64,000 bases of DNA from a virus (Duplodnaviria; Caudoviricetes): the IMG/VR virus record IMGVR_UViG_3300037067_012889, positions 32,001 to 96,000 of that record; one strand, given 5' to 3'. Made by a program: the position numbers and the translations under genes. Position 1 is the first letter of the stretch. Each line of letters opens with the position of its first letter. Of the stretch, positions 19,466 to 62,094 are shown one piece after another. A model generated the notes under the pieces. The model saw only the letters and a list, made by a program, of their open reading frames with translations, searched no databases and was not told the origin of the DNA.

Positions 19466-19846
19466 ATGAGTATTGTCCTTAAAGACACCCAGAGAGTTTC
19501 CATTAGTGTATCGCCGGTTGATGCAAAGGGGAACCCAGCAAAAGTGGACGGAGCACCTTCTTGGGCAGTAGTTGGCCCCGCAATCGTCACACTTGTGCCA
19601 TCCGACGACGGGTTGACATGTGTCGCAACAACAACCGGTGATTTGGGCACAACCCAAATCACGGTGTCGGCAGACGCCGATGTTGGCGAAGGTGTGCAAA
19701 CCATCTCTGGCCTACTGGACGTCGAAGTTGTTGGTGGTGTTGCCGTCAGTTTGAGTGTTGCTGCTGGCGTTCCTGAGGAAATTCCTACCACGCCAGAAAC
19801 CACTACGACGCCAGCACCAGTTGCGACCGATGCACCGGCTGCGTAG
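19466..19846 (+). CDS. Ig-like beta-sandwich protein
   Basis: Beta-strand-rich V/T/G sequence, PT-rich tail; GGAG RBS. Confidence 0.6.
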   Translation: MSIVLKDTQRVSISVSPVDAKGNPAKVDGAPSWAVVGPAIVTLVPSDDGLTCVATTTGDLGTTQITVSADADVGEGVQTISGLLDVEVVGGVAVSLSVAAGVPEEIPTTPETTTTPAPVATDAPAA

Positions 19847-19869
19847 TTTCATTGCTATTTGATTATCGT

Positions 19870-19905
19870 GCCGCCCTGCCAGCTTAGCTGGCAGGGCGGC
19901 TATTT
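19870..19905 (+). terminator. Rho-independent terminator-like hairpin between convergent genes
   Basis: 14-bp GC stem GCCGCCCTGCCAGC/GCTGGCAGGGCGGC. Confidence 0.7.
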
Positions 19906-28573: not shown

Positions 28574-28627
28574 GTTATAGCACAACAGAAGAAGGCTGTT
28601 AACTTAAATACCTAATCGTGCTATAAC
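28574..28627. promoter_or_regulatory. Bidirectional promoter pair sharing one TTAA
   Basis: GTTATAGCACA-N14-TTAA(28599-602)-N14-CGTGCTATAAC. Confidence 0.8.
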
Positions 28628-28638
28628 GAGGTAGAACA

Positions 28639-28800
28639 ATGATCGCGACATGTCGATGCTGTGCTGGACATGAATTTGTGAGCCGCGTGATCGAGGATTC
28701 ACCAGAAATTAACGTAATGGAAGTAGCAACCGAGACATGTCCAGTCTGTGACACGGATTCGTTTGAGATTGTGAATATCGAATATGATGACGCTGACTAA
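28639..28800 (+). CDS. Small zinc-ribbon protein (53 aa)
   Basis: Hand-translated; CRCC...CPVC; GAGG RBS. Confidence 0.55.
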   Translation: MIATCRCCAGHEFVSRVIEDSPEINVMEVATETCPVCDTDSFEIVNIEYDDAD

Positions 28801-29116
28801 GAACATGGGAATTATCAGACATATCTGTCGATCAATTTTTTACAGCATTAGGAATGCACTTTTCTATCGCAGTGAATGGATGCCTGCCAATAGGAATCCC
28901 AATTCCTATGCACGGAAGCACATTAACGACGCTATTTCTAGCAATTCAAAGGAACAGATATTTCTCTTCGCTACGAATTATATGTTGATGGGTATCGGTT
29001 TGATTGTGACTGAAAAACCCGGCAATCATCTGGCCTGGATTTATCTGACTAAACGCCAAAAAGAGGTTATGAATAAAGTCCGAAGCGTAGGTGGTTACAA
29101 TATTGATTTGTTATAA
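28784..29116 (+). CDS. Hypothetical protein
   Basis: ORF in run. Confidence 0.45.
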   Translation: MMTLTKNMGIIRHICRSIFYSIRNALFYRSEWMPANRNPNSYARKHINDAISSNSKEQIFLFATNYMLMGIGLIVTEKPGNHLAWIYLTKRQKEVMNKVRSVGGYNIDLL

Positions 29117-29143
29117 TTCAAAAATACTCCAAGGAGAATTATC

Positions 29144-29572
29144 ATGAATTATAACCTTGACGAAGCCAAGGATCTCACTACCACTTCTGACATGAACCCC
29201 ACTAAATGGCTTTACGAGCACTATGAAGATCTGAAAGGAATGGATGCTTCCGAACTTGGTCCTTTTCTCCTTCGCAGCATTCCACAGATGGGTGCATTTA
29301 GCCCACAAGCCGTTAAGAAGTTTACGATTGCCGTCCGACAGCTTACTTCACGAGACGACACAGTGGGTCTTCTGACCTATATCACGAATTTCATGATGAA
29401 GGGCATTGACCCGAGTCTAGGCGTCGTCCATGCCGGTCATTACCGCGAAGAAATTCAGATTATTGCTAATGTAATTACCGAGGATGTAAATGAGAAGATT
29501 TCTCCCAGATTCTTCGAATTGAAGAAAATGGTCGAAACCGACACAGGTTTGCGCCTCGTGCTGCGTCGTTAA
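29144..29572 (+). CDS. Hypothetical protein
   Basis: AAGGAG RBS. Confidence 0.7.
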   Translation: MNYNLDEAKDLTTTSDMNPTKWLYEHYEDLKGMDASELGPFLLRSIPQMGAFSPQAVKKFTIAVRQLTSRDDTVGLLTYITNFMMKGIDPSLGVVHAGHYREEIQIIANVITEDVNEKISPRFFELKKMVETDTGLRLVLRR

Positions 29573-29597
29573 TGGCTATTTTTTCTCGTGCTATAAT
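29569..29597 (+). promoter_or_regulatory. Phage promoter motif (leaderless gene)
   Basis: TTAA(stop)-N14-CGTGCTATAAT; ATG 6 nt after. Confidence 0.75.
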
Positions 29598-29602
29598 ATA
29601 GT

Positions 29603-30082
29603 ATGAGAGAACAACTAATATCCGAGATAGAACATGCCATTTCAAAGCTTGATGACAGACCCGGATTATGTCTCTATTATGCTAAAGAGACAATAGCCAT
29701 CTTGGCCCGCCACGGCTACAAGGCTATCATCCAAGCTGGATCGCTACAATGGCCCTGCTTGCGTCCAGAGGACGACGACGGCATCATCTCAACGCACTTC
29801 GCTTATATGTGGAGTCCTGGCGATCCAATCAGTGCCCTCTCTGTAGCTCTAGGAAATCTCCCAGAAATACATTGCTGGGTTGGATTGTTAGAAGAGCAGG
29901 AAATAGTCGATTTCAGTATCAGGCATCTAAAGAAAGCGGCAGCCGTACATGGCGTAAGGTGGACGGCTGCCGACCCGCCTCCATATCTCTGGTGTCCGGT
30001 GAACGAGATACCCGACGATGTCCGGTACATCCCAAATAGGGAAGCATCTATGTATGCTTCTATTCTGCTAAAGCGATTATAA
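29603..30082 (+). CDS. Hypothetical protein
   Basis: C...H.W...D pattern, possibly transglutaminase/papain-like. Confidence 0.65.
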   Translation: MREQLISEIEHAISKLDDRPGLCLYYAKETIAILARHGYKAIIQAGSLQWPCLRPEDDDGIISTHFAYMWSPGDPISALSVALGNLPEIHCWVGLLEEQEIVDFSIRHLKKAAAVHGVRWTAADPPPYLWCPVNEIPDDVRYIPNREASMYASILLKRL

Positions 30083-30103
30083 CCATTCTAAGCAGAGATA
30101 AAC

Positions 30104-30742
30104 ATGTCTTATAAAATCTTTGGGTTATATCCAGAGGATTACAACTTAATCCATTCGATTGATTTATCGGTACTGACCGATCTGATTCCGCACATCGATC
30201 TACGACCGGATCAGAAAGAATGTGATGCCCCTTTGCGGCTGAAAATACCGGATGAGCTTGAAAAGGCAATCAGACGTGTAACGAAGATGAAGACAAAGAG
30301 AACCGATCACAAATATCTCTACGTCCTGTTAACCGCAGCACGTTGTTATCGTGCTAAATATCCGATACCAGACGATTGGAAAGAGCCAGATTGCGGCAGT
30401 TATGCGAAAGCTGAACGCGACCGACGCCAAGAAGAAGAAACAGACTTAAATAGGAATAAGATTGTCCTGCGGCTACCACCAAAAGACAGAGAATTGTTAC
30501 TAAATCTTGGTCGTGGTCGCCAAGACATTATTACCCGCCATGCGGCCCTTTGCGAATTGGTGCCGATTGTTAAGAGCCTTGACGACACTGGTGCATTTGA
30601 AACAATCAAAAAACACAATAGAAAGTCGTATAGAGTCGACATCCCAAATGAACTTGAAGCGGCAATTGCACAAAGAGTATCTGATAGTACAGCATTCTTG
30701 ACTATTCTGCTTACTGCCGCTAAATTCTATTATTATGGCTAA
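30104..30742 (+). CDS. Internally duplicated putative DNA-binding (RHH-like) protein
   Basis: LKIPDELEKAI..LLTAARCY and VDIPNELEAAI..LLTAAKFY. Confidence 0.6.
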   Translation: MSYKIFGLYPEDYNLIHSIDLSVLTDLIPHIDLRPDQKECDAPLRLKIPDELEKAIRRVTKMKTKRTDHKYLYVLLTAARCYRAKYPIPDDWKEPDCGSYAKAERDRRQEEETDLNRNKIVLRLPPKDRELLLNLGRGRQDIITRHAALCELVPIVKSLDDTGAFETIKKHNRKSYRVDIPNELEAAIAQRVSDSTAFLTILLTAAKFYYYG

Positions 30743-30763
30743 GAGTTGCCAATCGGAGCAAAA

Positions 30764-31036
30764 ATGCAATCTGACCAAAATGCAGAACTGTCACCACGAC
30801 GTTTAACAGCCAACTGGTCTGACGATTCCTTGTTTTTCACCCATGTCTGGCGTGATGAAACAAGCATGTTTGACGATCATCCAAGCGTCCGATGGGAAGG
30901 CGGCGGCGAGTATTATAGCCGCGAATTCAAATGCCGCGTACCGAAAGCATTTGAAAACTGTGATGAATTGATTGACATGTTCATCGAATGGATGACCGAC
31001 AACGCTACCGAAACAAAAGGTTTCTGGGTCAATTAG
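30764..31036 (+). CDS. Hypothetical protein
   Basis: GGAG RBS. Confidence 0.55.
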   Translation: MQSDQNAELSPRRLTANWSDDSLFFTHVWRDETSMFDDHPSVRWEGGGEYYSREFKCRVPKAFENCDELIDMFIEWMTDNATETKGFWVN

Positions 31037-31451
31037 TTGGCGAATAATATCTAAATGAATTTACGTGAAACGTATTCTTCCATATCGTTGTATCTGTACG
31101 TGCACTAAAGTCATTCATTGGCCCACCATATAACTGAGAAGCTGGCCGACGTGGAACGGAAACATTTTACCAATACGCGAAGCGTACGGCGGTATATGGT
31201 AAAATCGATTATCACATTGGCACACCACCTCTACGTGGTATACTCGGCCTTTCATGTGCGGAAAATTTATTCGAGCGGAAATTCGATATCGGGTCCTCCT
31301 GTATATTATTCATTTTTTCGCCGGGAACATAACTTAATTTGGTATCCTGGGCATTGAATATCGGCCCTGGAGGTGGGATGAGCTTGGCAACTTCCTATTT
31401 TCCAACTTCCCCATTTTCCCAGCTTCCCTCTCCTGCCAGCTCTAAACGGTC

Positions 31452-31538
31452 ATACTTAAATGGTTATACTTAAATGGTTTATGACTGGTTATGTGACTGA
31501 AAGAAATACCACGGTTATATGACTGAAAGAAATACCAC
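31452..31538 (+). repeat. Clustered direct repeats (14 bp x2, 26 bp x2) in a long non-coding region
   Basis: ATACTTAAATGGTT x2; GGTTATRTGACTGAAAGAAATACCAC x2. Confidence 0.9.
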
Positions 31539-31733
31539 CTAACAGTAGTATATAGCCTTCACATATGCGGAAAATATATTCGATACAGAGAAAGACCTGG
31601 CCCCGGTCCACCAAATACGGTATCTTTGGGGCATAGTTACCCCACTATATGGGTAGAGTATACATACATTCCATTATAGGGGAGTATATCCCTTCGGGCG
31701 GCTGCATATCGCGACGAGGCCGATCGTTTAACT

Positions 31734-31762
31734 GGAAACAGGCACCTGCGTCGTGCTATAAC
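31734..31762 (+). promoter_or_regulatory. Phage promoter motif variant
   Basis: GGAA-N14-CGTGCTATAAC. Confidence 0.55.
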
Positions 31763-31843
31763 GGTGTGGCGGGGGAGGGTGACGCGAGACCGGGTTTTCT
31801 GGTCCGGCTCTCCGAGACCTGCCAACACACAGGAATCCGTACC

Positions 31844-32038
31844 ATGACGAAGAAAGAACTCCAAGCCATTACCGACAGCATCGTGGCCGCCGTGTTGCTC
31901 AAGGGCACCGAAGGCAAGGACGACGCGTACGTACCAACCCCGTCCGAAGAGGACCAAGCCCGCACCCTGGTCGGCATGACGATTCGAGCCAACCGCCAGA
32001 AGCTCATCGACGCGGTGCCGGTCGTCGGCTCGCTCTAG
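31844..32038 (+). CDS. Small hypothetical protein
   Basis: ACAGGA RBS; paralog of next gene. Confidence 0.65.
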   Translation: MTKKELQAITDSIVAAVLLKGTEGKDDAYVPTPSEEDQARTLVGMTIRANRQKLIDAVPVVGSL

Positions 32039-32057
32039 TCCGCACTATCTGCCGCTG

Positions 32058-32099
32058 AGACCCTCCCTGGTCTTCGTGATCGGGGAGGGTCTTGATTTT
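32058..32099 (+). terminator. Terminator-like hairpin with alternative pairing
   Basis: AGACCCTCCC/GGGAGGGTCT then TGATTTT. Confidence 0.55.
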
Positions 32100-32160
32100 G
32101 GTCTATCGGTGTTGGTCGGCCAAAATCAAGACCCTCCCTATTCTCTTTCAGGAGATAGTT

Positions 32161-32355
32161 ATGGACGAAGTTGTCGTATATCACTCACCAATCAAGATGT
32201 CGCCAAAAAAGCGACTATGCCGCCTTATCAACGGTATGATCGATGAGGTGAAGCGAACACATCCTCTGGTTTCCATCGAGGAAGCGCGGACGATGTTGGG
32301 GATCGTGCTGGTTGCGAGCAGAAACAGACTCGTAGAACAGGCGACCAATCTGTAG
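32161..32355 (+). CDS. Small hypothetical protein
   Basis: AGGAG RBS. Confidence 0.65.
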   Translation: MDEVVVYHSPIKMSPKKRLCRLINGMIDEVKRTHPLVSIEEARTMLGIVLVASRNRLVEQATNL

Positions 32356-32368
32356 AAACGAACGCCGG

Positions 32369-32408
32369 TTTCCAGGACGGAAACCGGCGTATGCTTTCGT
32401 GCTACAAC
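32369..32408 (+). promoter_or_regulatory. TTTCCA-N3-TGGAAA palindrome overlapping -35 of promoter
   Basis: TTTCCAGGACGGAAA-N14-CGTGCTACAAC. Confidence 0.7.
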
Positions 32409-32451
32409 AGTACTTTGGCAGGAGTCTATCCCAGAGTATAGGAGCAACGGT

Positions 32452-32631
32452 ATGCCAACACTGGCACAAGCAATCCGACAGAATCTCGTGCAGGCTGCAG
32501 AGCACACGTACGGTTCGTGTGTCGTGGAATTCGAAGGCCGCGAAGTCTCCTTCCGTTGGCGGGACGGAGTGGCGACCGTCGAAGACGGCGAAACCGAGCG
32601 TAGATTCCGTATCGAGGTCGTAGAGGAGTAG
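32452..32631 (+). CDS. Small hypothetical protein (59 aa)
   Basis: Hand-translated MPTLAQAIRQ...; AGGAG RBS. Confidence 0.65.
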   Translation: MPTLAQAIRQNLVQAAEHTYGSCVVEFEGREVSFRWRDGVATVEDGETERRFRIEVVEE

Positions 32632-32637
32632 TCCAGG

Positions 32638-32652
32638 TTTCCATCGTGGAAA
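32638..32652. repeat. TTTCCA-N3-TGGAAA palindrome
   Basis: TTTCCATCGTGGAAA, 6 nt after stop. Confidence 0.85.
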
Positions 32653-32668
32653 ATTGTGGAGATCATGT

Positions 32669-32866
32669 ATGTCTATAAACGTCATTCGTGGCGACAGGAT
32701 CGAACTCCTATCCATGTCAAACGATCCGCACCCAATCGAAACTGGGGCGCGAGGCACGGTGCTTTTCGTGGAGCCGATTGACGTCGGTATCCAAATCGTC
32801 GTCGACTGGGACAACGGCAGAAAGCTCAACCTCATCGTTCCACCCGACAGGTACAGAAAGATCTAA
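32669..32866 (+). CDS. DUF4314 family protein
   Basis: G.RIEL..M.DP.P...G.RGTV..V...I.V.WDNG..L.L...D. Confidence 0.75.
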   Translation: MSINVIRGDRIELLSMSNDPHPIETGARGTVLFVEPIDVGIQIVVDWDNGRKLNLIVPPDRYRKI

Positions 32867-32873
32867 TCCGAGG

Positions 32874-32913
32874 TTTCCAGCGTGGAAACAAACACCTATC
32901 ATGGTGCTATAAC
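32874..32913 (+). promoter_or_regulatory. Palindrome overlapping -35 of promoter
   Basis: TTTCCAGCGTGGAAA-N14-GGTGCTATAAC. Confidence 0.75.
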
Positions 32914-32929
32914 AACATAGAGGGACATC

Positions 32930-33145
32930 ATGCCAACGAAAAAAGAGCTGCAAGAAGCCTGTCGCAGGTTTGCAATTGAATCAATCAGTGCCGATCATTT
33001 CTTTGATCCCGTCTTCGACCATCTGATGGATAGGATGGCGGATGAAGAGATTGAGCGATTATGCGAATCTGATGACAGGAATGCAGCAGCTCTGGCGGCG
33101 GCACAAGAGATCAAAGCAGCAATCAAATCGCTGCCAATGTTGTGA
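32930..33145 (+). CDS. Small hypothetical protein
   Basis: GAGGG RBS; flanked by 30-bp direct repeats. Confidence 0.65.
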   Translation: MPTKKELQEACRRFAIESISADHFFDPVFDHLMDRMADEEIERLCESDDRNAAALAAAQEIKAAIKSLPML

Positions 33146-33150
33146 TCCGA

Positions 33151-33190
33151 TTTCCATCATGGAAACAAACACCTATCATGGTGCTATAAT
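33151..33190 (+). promoter_or_regulatory. Palindrome overlapping -35 of promoter
   Basis: TTTCCATCATGGAAA-N14-GGTGCTATAAT. Confidence 0.75.
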
Positions 33191-33266
33191 TAGGTGCAAC
33201 GGCGTCAAAAACGACATCTCAAACGCGGTGCCGGGATCCGCCAAGAAGAATCGAGCAAATCATGAA

Positions 33267-33497
33267 ATGGCATTTGTGAGTCGAGCGGCAGAACAGCGTA
33301 TCTTCAAACTTGCCTGTGATGGGTATGGATTTGAAGAGATCGAACAGACAGCAGATGGGCTATACTGCACTGGTTGCCAACAGGTCCACCATCGTCCAAT
33401 CAAGATGTATTCGAACGGACAAAACGAAGTGCTCTGCAAATCGGCAGTAGTTCGCTTCTATAATCCCGAGATTTCCAAGGAGGAAACAAAGAAATGA
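33267..33497 (+). CDS. Small hypothetical protein
   Basis: CTGC motif; start uncertain. Confidence 0.5.
   Translation: MAFVSRAAEQRIFKLACDGYGFEEIEQTADGLYCTGCQQVHHRPIKMYSNGQNEVLCKSAVVRFYNPEISKEETKK
33472..33486. repeat. TTTCCA-N3-TGGAAA palindrome (1 mismatch)
   Basis: TTTCCAAGGAGGAAA overlapping RBS of next gene. Confidence 0.65.
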
Positions 33498-33742
33498 CAT
33501 ACGTTATCGTCCGCAGCCAGATTGACTATCAGAACGAGATTTTGGCGGTCAGATCGACCAAGAAGGCGGCCAATACCTGTATGACCGAAATCGCCAAGCA
33601 GATGGTCGAGGATGCAAGCGACACGGAACCGCTTGGCATTGATACCACAAAGAGCGGCGAAATCACGCTGACCAGGACGGAGTTTGAGAATGAGGAACCG
33701 AAGTGGGTCCTGGAAATAATCATGGTTGAGGACGATAAATAA
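33494..33742 (+). CDS. Hypothetical protein
   Basis: AAGGAGG RBS. Confidence 0.65.
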   Translation: MTYVIVRSQIDYQNEILAVRSTKKAANTCMTEIAKQMVEDASDTEPLGIDTTKSGEITLTRTEFENEEPKWVLEIIMVEDDK

Positions 33743-33764
33743 CGTAGAAATCATCCACATGGCG

Positions 33765-33797
33765 AAGCCTCACGGCCCGAATAGCCGTGGGGCTTTT
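33765..33797 (+). terminator. Rho-independent terminator
   Basis: AAGCCTCACGGC/GCCGTGGGGCTT then TT, between convergent genes. Confidence 0.7.
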
Positions 33798-33802
33798 GTG
33801 TT

Positions 33803-33991
33803 TTAGCACGAGCATTTTGGATAGTGGGTGATTCTGATCGGTCCGACATCAACCGTGCAGCCTCGGACCTGAATGGGTCGGAATTGCCACCCTATCGGCT
33901 TGGATGGATGAGATTGGCCCTCTCGATAGATCCAGCGGCCAAATGTGGTTCGCCATCCCGTCCAGAGCATTTCGATCTTCCATCGCTTCAT
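33803..33991 (-). CDS. Small hypothetical protein
   Basis: ACAGGAGAT RBS after promoter cassette. Confidence 0.55.
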   Translation of the reverse strand: MKRWKIEMLWTGWRTTFGRWIYREGQSHPSKPIGWQFRPIQVRGCTVDVGPIRITHYPKCSC

Positions 33992-34016
33992 TTTCGAATC
34001 TCCTGTGCTTGGGGCG

Positions 34017-34069
34017 GACCTCCCTCCCCGGTACCAAGTTGTAGCACGAGAGCAGGTGATTATTAACCG
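34017..34069 (-). repeat. 53-bp promoter-leader cassette copy
   Basis: CGGTTAATAATCACC..CGTGCTACAACTTGGTACCGGGGAGGGAGGTC. Confidence 0.85.
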
Positions 34070-34431
34070 GGGCTTGCAGCGAAATCGGCTTTTGCCCATT
34101 CGAGCATCTGGTTTGTGATGGTCGGGAAGTCGCCAAGCTGTGTGAATTGTTCGCAGCAATCCGTTGGTGATTCTCCCCACGACATCCCACCAGTTATTAG
34201 CAGGATGAAGTTCATTCCGTCGATGCGAAACTCGGAGTATTCCTCTGATGGTCCGTTGACGATTTCAACTAGTTCGTTGACTGTGGTTTTTGCGATTTTT
34301 CGCCAGTCGGTCATTTCTTCGTTGCTTGTACCATCCGGGAATGGAATTTCGTCAGCGAGTTGTAGTAGCTTGGCAACTCGGTCTTCGGTTAGCTTACAAG
34401 CCGGAACCGTAGCATAAATGAACTCTGACAT
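34063..34431 (-). CDS. Hypothetical protein
   Basis: TGGMSWG motif; between two cassettes. Confidence 0.7.
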   Translation of the reverse strand: MSEFIYATVPACKLTEDRVAKLLQLADEIPFPDGTSNEEMTDWRKIAKTTVNELVEIVNGPSEEYSEFRIDGMNFILLITGGMSWGESPTDCCEQFTQLGDFPTITNQMLEWAKADFAASPG

Positions 34432-34463
34432 GGCATCTCTTTCTAGGCTGAAAACTTGAAGCT

Positions 34464-34516
34464 GACCTTCCTCTCCGGTACCAAGTTATAGCACAAGAAG
34501 AGGTGATTGTTAACCG
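34464..34516 (-). repeat. 53-bp promoter-leader cassette copy
   Basis: CGGTTAACAATCACC..TGTGCTATAACTTGGTACCGGAGAGGAAGGTC. Confidence 0.85.
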
Positions 34517-34587
34517 ACCATACACAAGCACCCGCAACGACTACGAGCCATTGCGGGTGCTAAGCACAGGAGACCACCACACTTATT

Positions 34588-34767
34588 TCAAACTTCTCCA
34601 AGTGGGAGAGTTGTCGATTCGGTCGTCACTTTGCCGCCATCTCTGATTGCCAAGTCGGACTTGTAAGCGAAATCACGCTTCGATTCGGCGTCATCCCAGT
34701 TGATGACACGCTTGTGGCATTCACCGGTGTCGGCATAAAAGACGGTGCAAAGAACTTTGAACATCAT
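34588..34767 (-). CDS. Small hypothetical protein (59 aa)
   Basis: Hand-translated MMFKVLCTVF...; GAAAGG RBS. Confidence 0.55.
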   Translation of the reverse strand: MMFKVLCTVFYADTGECHKRVINWDDAESKRDFAYKSDLAIRDGGKVTTESTTLPLGEV

Positions 34768-34794
34768 CGGCCTTTCTCAAAAAGACCCCGCAAT

Positions 34795-35250
34795 AGCTTC
34801 AACACCAAGCCTACTGTTACGGTGTTAGTTTTACCGACACAGCAATATGTCGGCGTGGCTTGGCTCCACTATCGCGAGATCTCTGCATGATGGGTTACGC
34901 AGCCCTTTCGGGCACTTGTTTATAGTGGGCTTATATACCACGTTGAGCGCTACCCATCTCTGCGTTATGTTTTCGGTCTGTGGCAGAGGGTGTCGTCACT
35001 GACGGCAGCCTCTGCCACCCTCTGCTGAGAGAGTGGCGACCATTATAATACGCAAAAGGCTTTTGCCTGCACCTAACCCCATCCGACTTTCCAGACGTTC
35101 GTTTTTACGTACGCTTTCTGTTGACGCCCATTATCTTGTGGCGTCGTTCTGGAAAACCAGCAAAGGTCCGAGAGCAGGCACCGCAGAAAAATCGCGATGC
35201 CGAACATTCAAGCTCTCCTTTTTCCGATGACCACGATTGGTTTCATCCGC
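34795..35250 (-). ncRNA. Candidate large structured RNA
   Basis: Own promoter; at least 8 nested helices; GAAA tetraloop on minus strand. Confidence 0.5.
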
Positions 35251-35255
35251 CCTTC

Positions 35256-35284
35256 GTTGTAGCACCGCGATGGTGCCCGCTTAA
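35256..35284 (-). promoter_or_regulatory. Phage promoter motif
   Basis: TTAA-N14-GGTGCTACAAC. Confidence 0.7.
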
Positions 35285-35288
35285 CTGA

Positions 35289-35582
35289 TCACGCCGTGTC
35301 TCTGGATTCGTTGAAATTCACGATGGCGTCCCTGAGGACTTCGAAGACGGTCTGCCGTGCTTTCGGGCTGTCGAGATAGTAAAAGGCCGCAGCCGCTTCG
35401 GACGTGAGCCACCAGAAGCTGAACTCAATGCCGTTGATCTTCACGCCGACGCACGGGCAGTGGTCGTCTTCCCAACCAGAAACGAGTTCGACCGTCAATT
35501 GTTCTGCATTGGTGATGTTCTCCAACGTCTGGAGTTCGTCACCGTTCAGATCGTCAATCATCCGGGTGCATCGTTCGGTCAT
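35289..35582 (-). CDS. Hypothetical protein
   Basis: ACAGGAG RBS. Confidence 0.65.
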   Translation of the reverse strand: MTERCTRMIDDLNGDELQTLENITNAEQLTVELVSGWEDDHCPCVGVKINGIEFSFWWLTSEAAAAFYYLDSPKARQTVFEVLRDAIVNFNESRDTA

Positions 35583-35607
35583 CGCGTCTCTCCTGTGTGT
35601 TGGAGAG

Positions 35608-35660
35608 GACCTTCCTCTCCGGTACCAAGTTATGGCACGAGGGGAGGTGATTGTTAACCG
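35608..35660 (-). repeat. 53-bp promoter-leader cassette copy
   Basis: CGGTTAACAATCACC..CGTGCCATAACTTGGTACCGGAGAGGAAGGTC. Confidence 0.85.
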
Positions 35661-35944
35661 GCGTCTTTGATGGCTTCCTCAACCATCTGGTTCAGATAGC
35701 CGCTATTGAGTGCGAAATCTTCTGCCGACTTGTAAGAGCAGTTGCCAAGATAAGCCGTTCCTACGCAAGTTCCAACCTTGGCCAAAACCGTAGCCGTACA
35801 CCAGCCCCATCTTCCCTCTGCCGTCTTCATAACCTCTCTGACAGCCTTGGCGTAACCGGGTGTCGATTTTGTTCGCCTCTCGGACTGTTCTGGCGTCTCG
35901 TCCTCTTCAAGCGTACTAATTGTGATCGTGATTTTCGTCGCCAT
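35654..35944 (-). CDS. Hypothetical protein
   Basis: ACAGGAGAT RBS; YLG.CSY motif. Confidence 0.65.
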   Translation of the reverse strand: MATKITITISTLEEDETPEQSERRTKSTPGYAKAVREVMKTAEGRWGWCTATVLAKVGTCVGTAYLGNCSYKSAEDFALNSGYLNQMVEEAIKDAG

Positions 35945-35972
35945 TTCGGAATCTCCTGTGTGACCTCGAACG

Positions 35973-36001
35973 TTTATAGCACCAGAGCAGGAGATTATTA
36001 A
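35973..36001 (-). promoter_or_regulatory. Phage promoter motif
   Basis: TTAA-N14-GGTGCTATAAA. Confidence 0.7.
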
Positions 36002-36024
36002 CCGGCTTGCGACGGCGATCAAAG

Positions 36025-36076
36025 CGGTTAACAATCACCGCCCATCGTGCTATAACTTGGCATGGGGAGGGAGGTC
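36025..36076 (+). repeat. Promoter-leader cassette copy
   Basis: CGGTTAACAATCACC..CGTGCTATAACTTGGCATGGGGAGGGAGGTC. Confidence 0.85.
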
Positions 36077-36103
36077 CGACCCAGAAACACAGGAGATTTC
36101 GAA

Positions 36104-37666
36104 ATGCTCAGCTTCACCGAACAGTTTCTCGCAGCTCGCAAGGTCGGCGTTCCTCTCATCGGAATCGAAAGCAGCGATCCTGGTGCGACGATGAAGACGC
36201 TGGTCAAGGACTGCTCCGAAACGCCTGTTTCTGCTGCTGTCGTTACGTGGAATTCGGCCACTGGTGTTGTTGGCAACAACGTTGCTGGTGAGAAACTGGC
36301 ATCGCGTCTGAACGAAGACCCCGACATCGCCGCTCCGATCGCTTTTCTGACCGCAATCGCCAGCGACGTCACGCCGGGATGGACCATCATCGGGATGCAA
36401 GCGGCAACCGATTGGTTCGACAACCCGGTCGTTCGTCAGGCCATCTGGAATCTCCGCGACAACTTCAAGCGTCGTGGTTGCACTCTCGTCCTGCTCTCGG
36501 ACGTCATCCAGCTACCGAACAGCCTCAAAAACGACGTCGTCATCATCGAAGAGCCGATGCCGAACGAAGAGCAGTTGGCCGGAATCGTCAAGACGCTCGA
36601 CGCACAAACGAGCCGTTGCGATTGTGGCGGCGTCAAGGGCTGCACGAAGTGCAAGGGGACTGGCATCAAGACGAAGCGGCCGTTGTGTGACGAGGACACG
36701 GTTGGCCGCGTGGTCGAAGCCGTGAAGGGCTTGCCGTACTTCGGTGCTGAACAGGTCGTGGCGATGGCACTCCGCAATCAGCCGGTCGCCGGACAGAAGC
36801 CCACGAGCTGCATCGACCTCGAACACTGCTGGAGTGCGAAGCGGAAGCAGGTCGAGCAGACGAAGGGGCTGTCGATCCATCGTGGCGGCGAGACTTTCGA
36901 TGATCTCGGTGGTCTCGACCAAATCAAGACCTACTTGAGTCGCATCATGACGGGCCGCAAGGCTCCGAAGCTCATCGTGTGGCTCGACGAAATCGAGAAG
37001 ACCGGCTTGGCAAATCGTGGCGACACGAGCGGCGTCAATCAGGACCAGGAAGGTACACTGCTTTCCTGGATGGAAGATTTCGACGTCTTCGGTGTCATGC
37101 TCCTTGGCGTTCCGGGTTGCGGCAAGTCGGCCATCTGCAAGGCGGTTGGTGCCGAATACGATCGCGTCGTCATCCGAATCGATCTCGGTGCGATGCAAGG
37201 CTCGCTGGTCGGCCAAAGCCAGACCAACATCCGAGCAGCCTTGAAGGTGGTGCAGGCCATCGGTGGTACCGACACGCTGTGGCTGGCGACGAGCAACAGC
37301 ATCAGCGGCTTGTCCTCTGCGATGAAGTCCCGATTCACCGACACCTTCTTTTTCGACCTGCCGCCGAAGGAAGAGCGTCTGCCGATTTGGAAGGTGTGGC
37401 TCGACAAGAACGGCCTCTCGGACAAGCCTTTCACGAACGACGAAGGCTGGGTCGCCCGCAACATCAAGAAGTGCTGCGACAAGGCGTTCCGAATGGGCAT
37501 CTCCATCGCGGAAGCCGCCACATACATCACCCCTGTTGGCCTGACCGACCGCGAGGACATCAAGAATCTGCGGTCCTGCGCCGACAACCGGTACCTCTCG
37601 GCCTCTCATGCTGGCGTCTACAAGGTGCCGAAGACCGTCGAGCCGGAACGGGCTTTGAGCCTCTGA
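36104..37666 (+). CDS. Ycf46-like AAA+ ATPase with swapped Walker A/B segments
   Basis: GGL..IK, WLDEIEK, GVPGCGKS, ATSN, RF...FFFDLP; CxxCxGxG insertion. Confidence 0.9.
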   Translation: MLSFTEQFLAARKVGVPLIGIESSDPGATMKTLVKDCSETPVSAAVVTWNSATGVVGNNVAGEKLASRLNEDPDIAAPIAFLTAIASDVTPGWTIIGMQAATDWFDNPVVRQAIWNLRDNFKRRGCTLVLLSDVIQLPNSLKNDVVIIEEPMPNEEQLAGIVKTLDAQTSRCDCGGVKGCTKCKGTGIKTKRPLCDEDTVGRVVEAVKGLPYFGAEQVVAMALRNQPVAGQKPTSCIDLEHCWSAKRKQVEQTKGLSIHRGGETFDDLGGLDQIKTYLSRIMTGRKAPKLIVWLDEIEKTGLANRGDTSGVNQDQEGTLLSWMEDFDVFGVMLLGVPGCGKSAICKAVGAEYDRVVIRIDLGAMQGSLVGQSQTNIRAALKVVQAIGGTDTLWLATSNSISGLSSAMKSRFTDTFFFDLPPKEERLPIWKVWLDKNGLSDKPFTNDEGWVARNIKKCCDKAFRMGISIAEAATYITPVGLTDREDIKNLRSCADNRYLSASHAGVYKVPKTVEPERALSL

Positions 37667-37859
37667 TACGTCCTGTGTCACAACTCGATCGGATGTGGCT
37701 CGTAGTCGCTCCGATCGGGTTGTTTTCTTTGAGGTAATAGATGAAAACCCGCGAATTGGTGAAACTGTTAATTGGTGCGCTATTAATAACTGGTGTGTGT
37801 TGGCTTGTGCATCTGGTCGAGTGGTGTTGTCAGCCATAGTCGAGATGGCAAACAGGCGG

Positions 37860-37888
37860 TTAATAATTACCCCTCATCGTGCTATAAC
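37860..37888 (+). promoter_or_regulatory. Phage promoter motif
   Basis: TTAA-N14-CGTGCTATAAC. Confidence 0.75.
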
Positions 37889-37925
37889 TAGTTACCGGAA
37901 AACAACATCTAACAGGAGATAGACG

Positions 37926-38882
37926 ATGACCGAGATCGAAAAAGCCCAATCAGAAGACGCTCAAGCCGCAAACGTGCTCGATTTGACAACCTGCTTGCTG
38001 CTCCGATTCCACAAAACCGGCCTCATTCGGAAGGGCAACATCACCAAAATCCAAACGATTGCCAACAAGAAACGTCTTGGACTCAACAAGAAGATTCTGA
38101 CCAGCGGGAATTACGACAGCATGATGCTCATCGCCCGCGACATTCGCCGCTACGCCGTGAAGCGTCAGGTCCCAGGGTCGCCGTTCTCGGAAGGAACTCA
38201 CCTGATCCCATTGCCACTCGTCGACGACCTGAACGACAAGATCACGAATGCTGAGAACGCGTACAACACGTGGGCCGACATGTTCGTCGACGAATACGCC
38301 AACCTGGTCGAGGAAGCGAAAGAGGAATTGCAAGATCAGTTCGATCCCAACAACTACTTCGACGTGAGCACCGATTCAGGTCGCAACGCACTGCGTGCCA
38401 AGTTCTGGGTAGAGCGGCGATGGTTCGACTGGTCGCCGTCCAGCGACAAGAAGGTGTCGAGTGTGGTTGCCTCACAGGAAAGGCGTCGTCAAGCAACCGA
38501 AATCCAGGATATGGCACTGCAGGTCAAAGCAGCGTTGCGGATGGGCTTGAAGAAACTCATCGACCATCTGGTCGAGCGTCTGACGCCTACCCCTGGTGGC
38601 GCTCGCAAGATGTTCGCTCCGACGACGATCACGAAAATCGCTGATTTCTTGGAGTTGTTCTCTGCCCGCAATGTCTGCGGTGACAAGGAATTGGCACTGC
38701 TCGCCGATCAAGCACGTGAGGTGCTCGACGGTCAAACTGCAGAATCTATCAGAGGCGACGAAGAAGTACAATCGGTCGTCGCCGGACATATGTCAACGAT
38801 CAAGGAAGGGTTGGACAAACTGCTGCAAGACATGCCAGAACGTGTCATCAACCTGGACGATGATGAGGATGATGATGAATAA
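37926..38882 (+). CDS. Helical protein, DUF3150-like AAA-module partner
   Basis: K.IL...G..LIP...F..EY...F....Y...KF...F...NV..D.EL pattern; position after AAA gene. Confidence 0.6.
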   Translation: MTEIEKAQSEDAQAANVLDLTTCLLLRFHKTGLIRKGNITKIQTIANKKRLGLNKKILTSGNYDSMMLIARDIRRYAVKRQVPGSPFSEGTHLIPLPLVDDLNDKITNAENAYNTWADMFVDEYANLVEEAKEELQDQFDPNNYFDVSTDSGRNALRAKFWVERRWFDWSPSSDKKVSSVVASQERRRQATEIQDMALQVKAALRMGLKKLIDHLVERLTPTPGGARKMFAPTTITKIADFLELFSARNVCGDKELALLADQAREVLDGQTAESIRGDEEVQSVVAGHMSTIKEGLDKLLQDMPERVINLDDDEDDDE

Positions 38883-39210
38883 GCTCGTCAAATTACTACT
38901 ACAGGTCCTAGTGTGGCCTGTAGTAGTAATTTTTCGATGGTTCGATGGTGATCGATTATCATCACTTCAAGCATGGTCTGATGAAGTCTTAAAGGACGAC
39001 CAAGACCTCGACAATGAGGGATTTCTAAAGAAGGTCCAAGAAGATAATCTCACCAAAACACTATTCCCTACCGAATTTGCTAAGAAGGTAGCAGAGATTT
39101 ACGGTGCAACGGGGTGTGTTAGCACTGCTGCTCCTCTCGACATCCAAAATAAGGACTCTGACAAGCCAGAAATAGATACAGGCGACGAAAGAGTTATCTG
39201 TCTCGATTAA
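38875..39210 (+). CDS. Hypothetical membrane-anchored protein
   Basis: Hydrophobic N-terminus. Confidence 0.5.
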   Translation: MNKLVKLLLQVLVWPVVVIFRWFDGDRLSSLQAWSDEVLKDDQDLDNEGFLKKVQEDNLTKTLFPTEFAKKVAEIYGATGCVSTAAPLDIQNKDSDKPEIDTGDERVICLD

Positions 39211-39235
39211 TAATTACCCGGATTCGTGCTATAAC
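39207..39235 (+). promoter_or_regulatory. Phage promoter motif
   Basis: TTAA(stop)-N14-CGTGCTATAAC. Confidence 0.75.
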
Positions 39236-39267
39236 TGGGTAGCGGGAAAGCAAATACAGGAGCAATC

Positions 39268-39714
39268 ATGTCACACGTCGTCGCGATCAAGCTCGAAATC
39301 AAAGACCTGAAAGCATTGGCCGAAGCAGCGAAAGCTCTCGGAGCCGAATTCGTCGAAGGTAAAAAGACCTTCCGATGGTACGGCAGATGGGTGAACGACT
39401 ACAGCGAAGAGAATGCCGCGTACAAGAACGGCATCGACCCGAAGGACTACGGGAAGTGCGATCACATCATCAGTCATCCCGACTGCTGCTACGACATTGG
39501 ACTCGTCAAGCAGTCGAATGGCACGTTCCTTGTCGTAGCCGACGAGTGGCATGCTGGTGGATTGGCACAGGTGTTCGGAAGTGGAATGTCGAAGCTCAAA
39601 CAGCGGTACGCGGTTTCCGTCGCCGCTCGAACCATGCGAGCCAAGGGATGGCGTGTCTCCGAGCGACCCGGCCAAAAGGCCGACAGCGTTCGTCTTGTCT
39701 GCACCAAAATGTGA
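39268..39714 (+). CDS. DUF1257 (Ycf35-like) protein
   Basis: MSH...I..EI.D...L..A...LG; DIG......G.F..VAD.W; L.Q.YA. Confidence 0.8.
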   Translation: MSHVVAIKLEIKDLKALAEAAKALGAEFVEGKKTFRWYGRWVNDYSEENAAYKNGIDPKDYGKCDHIISHPDCCYDIGLVKQSNGTFLVVADEWHAGGLAQVFGSGMSKLKQRYAVSVAARTMRAKGWRVSERPGQKADSVRLVCTKM

Positions 39715-39724
39715 AAGGGAGAAA

Positions 39725-39910
39725 ATGCAAACGATCACGATCGATATCGATACCGATGGGTCACCAACGATCAAAGTCAACGGTGTCCCCGGCAAGTCGT
39801 GCAAGGACGTCACAAAAACCGTTGAACGTGCTCTCGGGACAGTCACCTCGGATAAATCGACGCCTGAAATGTACCAACCGGAGAAGGCCCAACGACATGT
39901 CAGCCAATGA
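39725..39910 (+). CDS. DUF2997 protein
   Basis: I.I.I..DG...I.V.G..G.SC...T...E.ALG.V.....T.E.Y. Confidence 0.85.
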   Translation: MQTITIDIDTDGSPTIKVNGVPGKSCKDVTKTVERALGTVTSDKSTPEMYQPEKAQRHVSQ

Positions 39911-40157
39911 ACTCTTAATCGACGTGCTCGATGACGGCAGCTTGGCCGCGATCCACAACGATGCGTTGGTGGATTTGTATAGCGAAGGCCAGACGACCAT
40001 ACGGCGTGCAAGCAACGTTGAGCCGGTCGTAGTAGATGGCAAGGTGGCATGGGTTGCAGACCTCTCGCCTGTTGGTGGTCCGAAGCTCGAACCATGCGAC
40101 CTACGGGCCGACGCACTCGCGGCCGAGGTTGTTTGGTTGCAAGAGAACGGATTCTAA
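39897..40157 (+). CDS. Small conserved protein of the DUF1257/DUF2997 module
   Basis: IRRAS.VEP...W.ADLSPVGGP.L...R.DALAAE..WL. Confidence 0.7.
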   Translation: MSANELLIDVLDDGSLAAIHNDALVDLYSEGQTTIRRASNVEPVVVDGKVAWVADLSPVGGPKLEPCDLRADALAAEVVWLQENGF

Positions 40158-40159
40158 TC

Positions 40160-40174
40160 TTTCCAGAATGGAAA
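40160..40174. repeat. TTTCCA-N3-TGGAAA palindrome
   Basis: TTTCCAGAATGGAAA, 2 nt after stop. Confidence 0.85.
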
Positions 40175-40178
40175 TCAA

Positions 40179-40358
40179 GTGCAAGTAGGTCATCACATCC
40201 TGGAAGCATTGCGGTACGCAGCGAAACAACCGTGCCATCGATCTAACTGCGGCACAGTATGTAAGTGTGGTCCATGTCACGCACGAGCAGCACTCCAAGT
40301 TGTTGAAGAACGAGAACACAAACGCCTAAAGGCAAAATATGAGCAGCGAAACACATGA
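40179..40358 (+). CDS. Small Cys-rich protein (59 aa)
   Basis: Hand-translated, GTG start. Confidence 0.4.
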   Translation: MQVGHHILEALRYAAKQPCHRSNCGTVCKCGPCHARAALQVVEEREHKRLKAKYEQRNT

Positions 40359-40998
40359 AAGCTATGGCATGGTAGGGTTCTCGCGGACGAGTTGCCGCCC
40401 TGGTGTCAACCTCTTCGGATCGGCTATCAAACACGCCAACATTATAACACTACGTATCAAGCAGGCCAAAAAAGAACGCAGCTTGAACGAAGATCGGTAT
40501 TATGGTGGCGAATCGCTCATCGAGGTCGCCATGAGCCAAAACCAGTTTGCCGAAGCTATTACAGCGATGAATGTCGGCGACGGCGTTCCGTGCACTATCC
40601 GGCGAATTGGGAAGACCGGCGTGGCTGATTGCCCAGAAGAAACTGTGCGGCAAGTGTTCGAACAGGAATTCAAGCAGCATTGTGCTGAAATCGTAGAAGC
40701 TGCTGCTGGTCTGGTATCGAAGGCAGGGAAGATGCTGGAACAGAAGACGGTCAAAAAATCGGAATTGAAGGAACTTATCTCCGTTCTCAGGAAGCTTTCG
40801 ATTGAGCTTAATTGCAATCTACCATTCGTCGGCAGCCAGTTCAACGACGCGATGGATAAGATTGTCACTGACGGCAAGAATACCGTCGAAGCCTACATCT
40901 TACACCGGCTTACCGAGCTTGGTACCAAGGCACTCAGCAAAGAGATTGACGATTCGAACGAGCTTCCGGCAATCACTTTCCAGGGTACATTGGGTTAA
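40339..40998 (+). CDS. Conserved-looking phage hypothetical protein
   Basis: H.SYG...SR...LFGS ... EV.MS..QFA..IT..N.G.GVPCTI. Confidence 0.75.
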   Translation: MSSETHESYGMVGFSRTSCRPGVNLFGSAIKHANIITLRIKQAKKERSLNEDRYYGGESLIEVAMSQNQFAEAITAMNVGDGVPCTIRRIGKTGVADCPEETVRQVFEQEFKQHCAEIVEAAAGLVSKAGKMLEQKTVKKSELKELISVLRKLSIELNCNLPFVGSQFNDAMDKIVTDGKNTVEAYILHRLTELGTKALSKEIDDSNELPAITFQGTLG

Positions 40999-41046
40999 AT
41001 CCGTTACTATTTCGTGCTATAACTGGGTAGCGGGGAGGGAGGTCCG
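40995..41046 (+). promoter_or_regulatory. Promoter motif with conserved GGGGAGGGAGGTCC leader
   Basis: TTAA(stop)-N14-CGTGCTATAAC. Confidence 0.75.
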
Positions 41047-41065
41047 ACCGCATAGGAGGCATGAA

Positions 41066-42051: not shown

Positions 42052-42309
42052 ATGGTGGCCACATTATCTGAAATGAATGGCGGTTTTGACTCGATCCCAT
42101 TTGAAATTCTTGAGGATGGCACGATTAGCATCAAAACCGATCGCATCAGCGGGACAAATCACATGTCAGCCGACGACCTACTGGCCGACTTAGCTAAGGT
42201 CATGGGTGGCGAACACACATCAAAACAGCGGGAAGACGTCAAGGTCCCACTTCGTCATCACCATCACGGCCACGAGCACGGACACGAGCACGGCCATCTA
42301 CATCAATGA
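42052..42309 (+). CDS. Divergent DUF2997-like protein with His-rich tail
   Basis: FEILEDGTISI.T; HHHHGHEHGHEH tail. Confidence 0.55.
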   Translation: MVATLSEMNGGFDSIPFEILEDGTISIKTDRISGTNHMSADDLLADLAKVMGGEHTSKQREDVKVPLRHHHHGHEHGHEHGHLHQ

Positions 42310-42947
42310 AACTATCTGAATTGCAAAACGGCTGGGAACTAATCGAATCCATGAATAATGAGATTCGATTAGCCGATGGCATCGTTGGCGAGATTCAAGA
42401 CCACAATCGCCGACGAGCTGCCATGCAGTTTATGCAGCATAAACTGTTGAAGGAAGACGAGACCACAGATCCGCAAACGGGGATCTTCTTCTGGGTTCCG
42501 ATCATCGGATCCAAAATCACTTGGCGTCTCGAAACGTTTTTCGATTCACAATTCCCAGTCAACTCAGAACATAGCCAAGGTTTGGATCATCAAGGCATTT
42601 GGCTCCGATGGGCAAATACCATTCTTGGAAAAGATGATTCCGACGCACCAAGAGAAATAAGGCATCATTATAGTGGTTTGCCGCGTGGCAGGGTGACAGT
42701 TACGAAAGAACGAAAATATATCGGGGCACCAGCAACCAAGGTCTGGCTGATTCTCAACGGTGGCGATGCACCAATGCCGGAAGCAAAAGCAGGCAAGCTA
42801 CTCGCCTCACGATTCTGTCTTCCGGACGGCCAATGGAAGTACGTATTTGACGATCATGAACGCATGCTAGCCGATGACGTCAAGGCCATTCAACGCTATC
42901 TTGGCCGCGATTTAGGGTTACTCAAAAAAGTGGCCAAATTCGACTAA
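42306..42947 (+). CDS. Hypothetical protein
   Basis: PRGRV motif; N-terminal M.L..L...IES leader. Confidence 0.65.
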   Translation: MKLSELQNGWELIESMNNEIRLADGIVGEIQDHNRRRAAMQFMQHKLLKEDETTDPQTGIFFWVPIIGSKITWRLETFFDSQFPVNSEHSQGLDHQGIWLRWANTILGKDDSDAPREIRHHYSGLPRGRVTVTKERKYIGAPATKVWLILNGGDAPMPEAKAGKLLASRFCLPDGQWKYVFDDHERMLADDVKAIQRYLGRDLGLLKKVAKFD

Positions 42948-51082: not shown

Positions 51083-51360
51083 AGCGGCAAAAGAAGCCAA
51101 AGGTTGAGATCTTGTTCGAAGTCGGTCTCGCGGGAGAGCGGATCAAACAAGATGACTTTATCGAATACTTGGAGACAGTTCACAACATCTCTAAGGTTTA
51201 CCCTGAAGCACTTACGGCCGTCATCGATGCACCTGAGATAGAGAGCCTCTTTTGCATCCCTTCCTTTTATGTCATTTACCGCAAGATTGCGAAGCGTGTC
51301 ACGGAAAATGACATTCGTCTCGCACTTAAAGAACTCATTAAGAGTGAAAATGACGAATGA
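51079..51360 (+). CDS. Hypothetical protein
   Basis: ATGA overlap. Confidence 0.6.
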   Translation: MKRQKKPKVEILFEVGLAGERIKQDDFIEYLETVHNISKVYPEALTAVIDAPEIESLFCIPSFYVIYRKIAKRVTENDIRLALKELIKSENDE

Positions 51361-51650
51361 AGGTTGGCAAAAACAAAGTCATGGTCGATGGATTTGAGGG
51401 GTTGCTTGAACGGGTCGAGAAACCAAATCAAGCTTTGACCCTCAAACTCCATCTTCCATGCGTTCTATCTGTTCGCAATTTCGACGTATTCAAAGTCATC
51501 AAGCAACTCGCCATATCACTCGAAATACGATCGAAATGGTGGCAGGTGGACGATAAATACTACGCTATACTCTTCGAAAGTCGAATAACAGGACAAGAAA
51601 TCTCAAAACTCGTCCACGAATTCGAAGATTCGGTTAACCAGTGCTCCTGA
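51357..51650 (+). CDS. Hypothetical protein
   Basis: ATGA overlap. Confidence 0.6.
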   Translation: MKVGKNKVMVDGFEGLLERVEKPNQALTLKLHLPCVLSVRNFDVFKVIKQLAISLEIRSKWWQVDDKYYAILFESRITGQEISKLVHEFEDSVNQCS

Positions 51651-57024: not shown

Positions 57025-57112
57025 GGCCGTGTGGAGAAATCGGTAAACTCAACAAATTTAAAATTTGTCACCTATTCAAACGGGTTTGCGGGTTCGAATC
57101 CCGCCACGGCTA
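57025..57112 (+). tRNA. tRNA-Leu(TAA)
   Basis: GGCCGTG/CACGGCT, ACAAA-TTTAAAA-TTTGT, long variable arm, A73. Confidence 0.9.
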
Positions 57113-60878: not shown

Positions 60879-60879
60879 A

Positions 60880-60894
60880 TTTCCAAGGTGGAAA
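60880..60894. repeat. TTTCCA-N3-TGGAAA palindrome
   Basis: TTTCCAAGGTGGAAA 1 nt after TAA. Confidence 0.85.
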
Positions 60895-60908
60895 TTCCAG
60901 GATATGAT

Positions 60909-61091: not shown

Positions 61092-61106
61092 TTGTGGCGT
61101 CTTGAA

Positions 61107-62088: not shown

Positions 62089-62094
62089 CATCTT

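Follow-up and report, generated by a model that had tools for sequence, protein, structure and literature searches.

In the genome of an uncultured phage, a promoter-like sequence points leftward into about 450 nt rich in complementary segments. Does this stretch specify a structured non-coding RNA, a protein, or a messenger in which both levels are under selection? The 64,000-nt stretch of DNA analysed here (the window) comprises bases 32001–96000 of an IMG/VR virus record of 363,885 bp; since this record was judged complete, the virus is a jumbo phage (~364 kb). Near-identical DNA is present in groundwater, wastewater, and landfill metagenomes. No close cultured phage was found: the best tblastn match of the neighbouring ATPase reached ≤35% identity, and blastn of the stretch against 50,697 phage records gave 0 matches. 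Two minus-strand ORFs, 35289–35582 (97 aa) and 34588–34767 (59 aa), flank the stretch. One possible RNA sequencing run gave no contigs over it, and DNA sequencing runs yielded near-identical strains only, which were therefore of no use for covariation analysis.

The initial annotation, made from the letters of the sequence, had read positions 34795–35250 as a structured non-coding RNA with its own promoter, and had listed seven segment pairs and a GNRA hairpin. Each pair proved to be an exact reverse complement (34871–77/35192–98, 35064–70/35174–80, 35088–95/35148–55, 35123–28/35140–45, 34980–89/35009–18, 34889–95/34952–58, and 34805–11/34857–63), and GCCC-GAAA-GGGC with its GNRA loop lies on the minus strand at 34903–34914. 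The proposed unusual structure also held against shuffled sequences. The minus strand of a 521-nt segment folded at −210.3 kcal/mol with a z-score of −6.77 (0 of 100 shuffles as low), the predicted transcript 35245–34768 gave z −7.65, and the plus strand of the region gave z −3.86. When 1280 windows of 300 nt from both strands of the 64 kb served as background, with energy regressed on composition, the region fell within approximately the top 1–2% (z −2.5 to −2.7), on a par with the tRNA cluster and equalled or exceeded at several other places. Equally or more strongly folding windows (regression z −3.0 to −3.8) were 19601–19900, 60801–61200, 61701–62200, 42301–42600, 51301–51600, and 32001–32300, and a perfect 19-bp inverted repeat is situated within 32083–32138.

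Nor did any known RNA family match the stretch. Rfam 15 at the gathering threshold returned only five tRNA genes elsewhere in the window, four of them clustered at 5.7–8.1 kb (5741–8121) and one at 57025–57112, and relaxing the search to E values up to 10 over 34500–35500 added only chance miRNA and snoRNA matches of 13–18 bits against thresholds of 36–95. The stretch is similar in size and degree of folding to large RNAs of Rfam (GOLLD, ROOL, HEARO, group I introns, tmRNA, and RNase P); unlike them, it matched no family model even when filters were permissive and E values up to 10 were admitted.

The following features, all on the minus strand, frame the locus.

35256–35284, minus strand: sigma-70-like promoter of the cassette, in register with the recurrent promoter of this phage.
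35208–35248, minus strand: 5′ leader, with the Shine-Dalgarno (SD) sequence AAGGAGAG at 35220–35213, 5 nt upstream of the ATG.
35073–35207, minus strand: small protein gene of 44 aa (ORF44), recognized by its SD, ATG, stop, frame, and profile conservation.
34588–34767, minus strand: downstream 59-aa gene, with homologs of 68–75% identity in relatives.

The promoter consists of a −35 box TTAAGC (35284–35279), a 17-nt spacer with an extended TG (35264–35263), and a −10 box TACAAC (35261–35256). Seven other copies in the window, and the cassette promoters of the related loci L003 and L020, align with it in register, so that the leftward promoter proposed for 35256–35284 was borne out. This homology is established at the level of sequence; transcription itself, presumably starting near 35249, is what it leads us to infer. 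Many copies of the recurrent promoter, on either strand between 28 and 42 kb, carry the motif GGTTAAY-AATCACC-N-TCGTGCTATAAC, in which TTAACA and TATAAC can be taken as the −35 and −10 boxes of a sigma-70-type promoter, 17 nt apart and with an extended TG. At least 12 copies lie at 28574–41049 of the window on both strands, with small genes driven in both directions, and copies often carry a conserved G-rich transcribed leader. A generic promoter scan missed every copy because it required T at the last −10 position, where these boxes end in C. In the near-identical strain L019, the −35 and −10 boxes are unchanged and the spacer and leader vary; among strains, the leader is hypervariable, with both substitutions and indels.

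Relatives were collected by anchoring on the ATPase gene, which yielded three viral contigs, followed by 80 metagenome loci, and by homologs of the 59-aa gene, which gave seven more loci. Related loci totalling ~0.95 Mb were searched by nhmmer, with single sequences and with a profile, and by tblastn with the peptides; only L003, L020, and L019 contained the 5′ half of the stretch (the cassette). When viral contigs were scanned for exact patterns of HP2, HP1, and the region of the GNRA hairpin (hairpins described below), only the contig of L003, or nothing, was returned. A search with the peptide profile added a fourth diverged copy, L100, on a 1-kb contig. The diverged copies compared below are thus those of the window, L003, L020, and L100, with L019 as a near-identical strain. 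The cassette is absent from L002, L004, L012–L018, and 79 of the 80 ATPase-anchored loci.

The surroundings of the cassette differ among these copies. It lies between the 97-aa and 59-aa genes in the window, before a 92–101-aa gene followed by the 59-aa gene in L003 and L100, and before an unrelated 41-aa gene in L020; its orientation relative to the ATPase gene is reversed in L003, and in L100 it directly follows another ORF and has no promoter. Phage morons, known from lambdoid phages, are insertions between conserved genes that consist of a promoter, a gene, and a terminator. Our cassette resembles a moron in being a small accessory gene with its own promoter in three of the four homologs (window, L003, and L020), in its patchy presence among relatives, and in its differing neighbours and orientation. 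Unlike a moron, it has no terminator (HP2 is not followed by a U-tract), the genes downstream depend on read-through, and the L100 gene is promoterless and inside an operon. Since no promoter copy lies between the cassette and the 59-aa gene of the window, the two are probably co-transcribed.

The 44-aa ORF had been noted at the outset as a caveat, together with its ribosome-binding site, and that site is indeed in place. The ORF is retained in the window, L019, L003, L020, and L100. In all four diverged homologs, a strong SD precedes the ATG at a proper distance, the ATG is at the same aligned position, and the stop is at the same aligned codon despite a switch between TAG and TGA. ORF lengths are 135, 132, 135, and 126 nt. 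The stretch forming the loop of HP1 measures 9, 12, 15, and 9 nt and encodes hydrophobic residues only, so all indels are in frame, and the other two frames contain stops in the window, L003, and L020, the sequences examined for this. Over 25 well-aligned codon columns, variable sites at codon positions 1, 2, and 3 numbered 9, 8, and 15, and synonymous changes were seen at six of 11 invariant residues other than Met and Trp. The chance that the variable middle would stay open was 0.29–0.58 per sequence, i.e., not small. A peptide profile searched against 1.84 billion proteins recovered family members only (E 1e-21, 6e-19, 5e-14, and 4e-8). Judged by this coding signature, which we regard as established, 35073–35207 is a real protein-coding gene.

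These observations bear directly on the original proposal of a purely non-coding structured RNA of ~450 nt in which the ORF is incidental. The very low folding z-scores, the covarying helices described below, and the lack of a protein family match for the ORF are what such an RNA would display; the codon pattern, the in-frame indels, the conserved SD, ATG, and stop, and the protein-profile matches are not. Conservation over 35073–35207 follows the codon pattern of the peptide, an outcome that the initial annotation itself had named as telling against its proposal, and the relatives have no counterpart of the 3′ half, so that no 450-nt unit is conserved. The single non-coding RNA was therefore abandoned: its first half encodes a conserved peptide and its second half is absent from relatives. 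The comparative data already disfavour this reading, which we consider highly improbable. As the case of ORF44 warns, a very low folding z-score is no proof of a non-coding RNA. The accompanying caveat, that the transcript might be a dual-function RNA or a leader, came closer to the truth than the title under which it stood.

The consensus of the peptide is M-[FL]-G-I-A-[IV], a run of hydrophobic residues, L-R-[CY]-L-L-x-[DE]-[PL]-C, a variable middle, and G-[VI]-W-K-x-[EG]-W-G, i.e., the N-terminal helix is hydrophobic and the C-terminal block G-[VI]-W-K-x-x-W-G is conserved. AlphaFold predicted a helix at residues 3–21 with moderate confidence (pLDDT 72–81). The Kyte-Doolittle maximum over 17 residues is 1.7–2.2, for a hydrophobic stretch that contains Arg and Asp/Glu. 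Pfam, NCBIfam, and PHROG gave no match to the peptide at E up to 1, and an Atlas search with it gave no usable look-alike. As part of the main reading given below, the peptide probably represents a small-protein family that is new and limited to this clade of phages. The 353-aa repeat protein P0012 carries five copies of GGVWRVRW, a weak match (E 1e-4) of the peptide profile in its C-terminal block; it was rejected as a relative, the resemblance being judged a chance one of low complexity.

A short peptide with a hydrophobic N-terminal helix, encoded in a compactly folded mRNA, raises the question of a type I toxin-like module, i.e., a small membrane-active peptide silenced both by an antisense RNA and by the folding of the mRNA that encodes it. 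Descriptors of mRNA folds of this kind are applied to type I toxin mRNAs in T1TAdb (PMC8594479). With type I toxin mRNAs such as hok, tisB, and aapA (T1TAdb, PMC8594479; Masachis et al. 2019, PMC6733600), the ORF44 mRNA shares a compact conserved fold that encodes a small peptide with a predicted hydrophobic helix, and an ORF-crossing helix with a 3′ stem-loop. The hairpin by the start codon, the helix spanning the ORF, the stable 3′ stem-loop, and a CU-rich tract complementary to an SD-like GGAGG in each homolog all fit this module. The differences are that no promoter of an antitoxin RNA was detected, predicted SD sequestration varies among homologs, no homology to known toxins was seen for the peptide, and ORF44 lies in a phage operon. 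A conserved antisense promoter was sought in the four homologs, and no −10 or extended −10 box occurs at a shared position. For each homolog a different partner of the SD is predicted, with strong distal pairing in L020 only and weak pairing in the window, so that no consistent SD/anti-SD fold-back emerges. Charged residues (Arg and Asp/Glu) interrupt the hydrophobic stretch, the failure to match Pfam and NCBIfam extends to toxin families if such models are included there, and the gene is part of an operon and not a stand-alone locus. A toxin module is thus an improbable reading, and the likeness is best taken as a resemblance in mRNA descriptors, not as membership in the class.

The mRNA of ORF44 has a fold of its own that is shared among the homologs, with four named helices on the minus strand.

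35177–35201, minus strand: HP1, an 8-bp hairpin (GGCAUCGC / GCGGUGCC) with a 9-nt U-rich loop, starting at codon 3.
35064–35180, minus strand: closing helix, with its 5′ strand at ~35180–35163 (codons 10–15) and its 3′ strand at ~35081–35064.
35018–35033, minus strand: HPa, a short hairpin CUCUC(Y) / (R)GAGGG that directly abuts HP2.
34980–35018, minus strand: HP2, a 19-bp hairpin with two internal mismatches, located between cistrons and without a U-tract.

The 44 pairs of these helices were counted on a MAFFT alignment of the four diverged sequences, and two controls were used, one with pairing partners slid by 1–3 columns and one with 500 shuffles. Pairing was retained in 91.5% of cells, compared to 40–58% in the slid controls. 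Eight pairs had changed on both sides, compared to 3.0 ± 1.4 in shuffles (0 of 500) and 1–4 in slid controls; with only four diverged sequences, the shuffle control may overstate this significance, and the L020 lineage contributes most of the double changes. HP1 and HP2 were recovered independently by RNAalifold from the MAFFT alignment, and the 5′ half folded with z-scores of −4.0 (window), −4.6 (L003), and −6.65 (L020). Conserved peptide blocks overlap helix strands, so the constraints on peptide and RNA are partly confounded. We consider the conserved pairing with its compensatory changes to be established, and the support for a conserved secondary structure, at n = 4, to be moderate. Homologs and covariation had been named initially as checks on the RNA, and they gave a split answer: compensatory changes in the 5′ half (four sequences), and no homologs for the 3′ 212 nt. 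Several of the seven listed pairs are kept in relatives, among them HP2 (34980–89/35009–18) and the outer closing helix (35064–70/35174–80). The pair 34871–77/35192–98 was dropped: it competes with the conserved HP1, and its 3′ partner is absent from relatives.

HP1 is paired in 100% of cells in the four sequences, with a stem of 8–11 bp that begins at +7. In L020, a C-G pair has become U-A by changes on both sides at the cost of a Cys to Tyr replacement, and one U·G has become U-A; synonymous sites within the HP1 stem are nearly invariant. The closing helix has as its 3′ strand the last codons, the stop codon, and the first bases of the 3′ UTR, and encloses the variable middle of the ORF. It is present in the minimum free energy (MFE) structures of the window, L003, and L020 and paired in 84.6% of cells, a value in which the window row is one base out of register in the MAFFT alignment; the helix requires a different register in the window, and one pair has changed on both sides. 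HPa is paired in 96.4% of cells with both-sides changes in two pairs. HP2 has four such pairs, its two mismatches are identical in three of the four sequences, and both become pairs in L020. The loop base at 34999 differs between strains. At ~3205–3215 of L019 (window 34995–35005), an 11-nt deletion removes the upper stem and loop of HP2 and leaves a 10-bp hairpin, through either real palindrome instability or an assembly artefact.

Could the inverted repeats act as DNA, either as protein-binding palindromes or as recombination hot spots? The plus strand of HP2 has one mismatch fewer and a slightly better fold, the L019 deletion is at the centre of the palindrome, and a mosaic recombination patch ends beside the cassette. 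However, wobble pairs in HP1 and the change of U-A to U·G in HP2 of L100 can pair on the sense strand only, which points to RNA rather than to a DNA palindrome. Moreover, the stem sequences vary while pairing is kept, unlike a sequence-specific operator, good folding of the 212 nt that follow is limited to one strand, and the L019 deletion might have arisen in assembly. We consider a role at the DNA level, for HP2 or other inverted repeats, very unlikely.

The same helices could belong to a dual-function RNA that, like SgrS/SgrT or RNAIII/hld, has two roles: it would encode the peptide and also act in regulation or protein binding by way of HP1, HPa, or HP2. HP1 pairing is kept despite the Cys to Tyr cost, synonymous sites in its stems are almost unchanged, HPa and HP2 covary though they lie outside the ORF, and the HP2 mismatches, shared unchanged by three of the four sequences, may point to a factor that recognizes them. 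Roles intrinsic to the mRNA, namely translation control and stability, account for the helices equally well; the target or partner is putative, and the family is too small for a search for a conserved single-stranded seed. Such a second function is quite unlikely in our estimation, and we prefer a messenger whose fold serves its own expression.

HP2 does not have the features of a terminator. A terminator scan found no intrinsic terminator at HP2, and no U-tract follows the stem in any homolog. In L003, L020, and L100, the ribosome-binding site (RBS) of the next gene is 15–30 nt after HP2 with no promoter between. As the genes downstream lack promoters, HPa-HP2 would not terminate transcription; the missing U-tract and the promoterless next gene suggest an intercistronic stability or processing hairpin. 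A covariance model of HPa-HP2 (R2) matched once each in G000 and G002. Since it occurs once per genome, the element is not a general terminator of the phage. A weaker third match was found in G002 (76126–76197, 25.7 bits, E 6.5e-4), and a weak match in G001 was rejected, since it falls in a zinc-ribbon ORF. Intercistronic RNase III or stability hairpins occur in the T7 early region and in lambda early mRNAs. Like these, HPa-HP2 is long, imperfect, free of a U-tract, and located between cistrons of a promoter-proximal early operon. Unlike them, it occurs once per genome and not between many genes, and its cleavage is only putative.

Directly after HP2 begins the 3′ segment of 212 nt (34768–34979, minus strand), for which two domains were predicted.

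34885–34963, minus strand: domain A, a predicted Y-shaped fold in the MFE and centroid structures.
34782–34884, minus strand: domain B, a predicted long imperfect hairpin of ~100 nt, rich in G·U pairs, ending 13 nt before the next RBS.

Domain A is closed by GAUGGGU/ACCCAUC and carries a GUGG/CCAC hairpin beside the GCCC-GAAA-GGGC hairpin; the RBS of the 59-aa gene is unpaired in the prediction. The segment folds with z −5.60 on the minus strand and z −1.53 on the plus strand, and thus its structure depends on the G·U pairs of the transcribed strand. No counterpart was found in L003, L020, L100, or other loci, the segment being present in near-identical strains only, and a covariance model of its predicted fold (R1) matched only itself in four phage genomes and 94 loci. 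This restriction to one lineage is established. The segment is 100% identical among strain variants, which is uninformative because these variants are ~99% identical everywhere outside the mosaic patch.

Relatives carry a 92–131-aa gene where the window has the 212 nt. The idea that the segment is a decayed copy of the 92-aa gene was rejected, as there is neither protein similarity nor DNA similarity (z ≤1.3). A minus-strand 36-aa ORF starting with GTG and plus-strand ORFs within the 3′ part were likewise dismissed, as they have no RBS and no homologs. The 92–131-aa family has the motif AYHRNG...GFCVVTFD...YPMVAVVF...VIEFGLNSW; its genes (L003 2348–2628, L012 2697–2975, L014 2631–2972, L017 2580–2975, and L100 544–849) precede the 59-aa gene in relatives, and the family is missing from the phage of the window.

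Most simply, the 212 nt would be a structured intercistronic spacer or the 5′ UTR of the 59-aa gene that has replaced a gene; it could also be a recently born RNA element. In a further version, the segment is a newly acquired, functional structured RNA, cis-regulatory or free-standing, that replaced a protein gene, the fold of ORF44 is a riboregulator, and the whole unit is a dual-function RNA of the phage. We regard this combination as unlikely, if worth keeping in mind.

Our main reading, to which we assign a probability of roughly 0.6, is that the locus is a promoter-driven unit in which a conserved small-protein gene set in a conserved mRNA fold is followed by a lineage-specific folded spacer. 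An early transcription unit would run leftward from the promoter at 35284–35256, and its first cistron (35207–35073) would yield the 44-aa peptide with its hydrophobic N-terminal helix and Trp-rich C-terminus. An initiating ribosome must keep the stretch of mRNA around +7 single-stranded. HP1, at codon 3, would lie within this initiation footprint, and its conservation there with a compensatory change suggests that peptide synthesis is purposely restricted or made conditional. Codons 10–15 would pair with the last codons and the stop codon in the closing helix, so that HP1, the closing helix, and HPa-HP2 may together limit or time translation of the peptide. Predicted SD sequestration varies among homologs, so the proposed translational control depends chiefly on where HP1 lies. 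The HPa-HP2 tandem just 3′ of the ORF would form a stable or processable 3′ boundary of the upstream mRNA, not a terminator, and the 212-nt folded spacer or 5′ UTR of the 59-aa gene would follow it. Small ORFs and intergenic structure of huge phages are mostly unannotated, and here signatures of selection on the peptide and on the RNA occur together. At ~280 nt, the cassette offers a compact, clonable case in which a phage may tune a tiny, probably membrane-associated early protein.

Two further observations concern the surrounding sequence. L019 is ~99% identical to the window elsewhere and has a mosaic patch of 64–90% identity (window 35200–35650 / L019 2560–3000), which spans the 97-aa gene, the promoter of that gene, and the cassette promoter and leader. 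A promoter repeat lies at one edge of the patch and the SD at the other, which suggests recombination at promoter cassettes. In addition, a palindrome TTTCC-N4-5-GGAAA(GGA) recurs, overlapping the RBS of many small genes, and is conserved as a motif across related phages (window 32268–33485; L003 2020–2040, 2325–2345, and 2630–2650; L100 268–290 and 520–545). This palindrome may act as a translational operator or mark a processing site.
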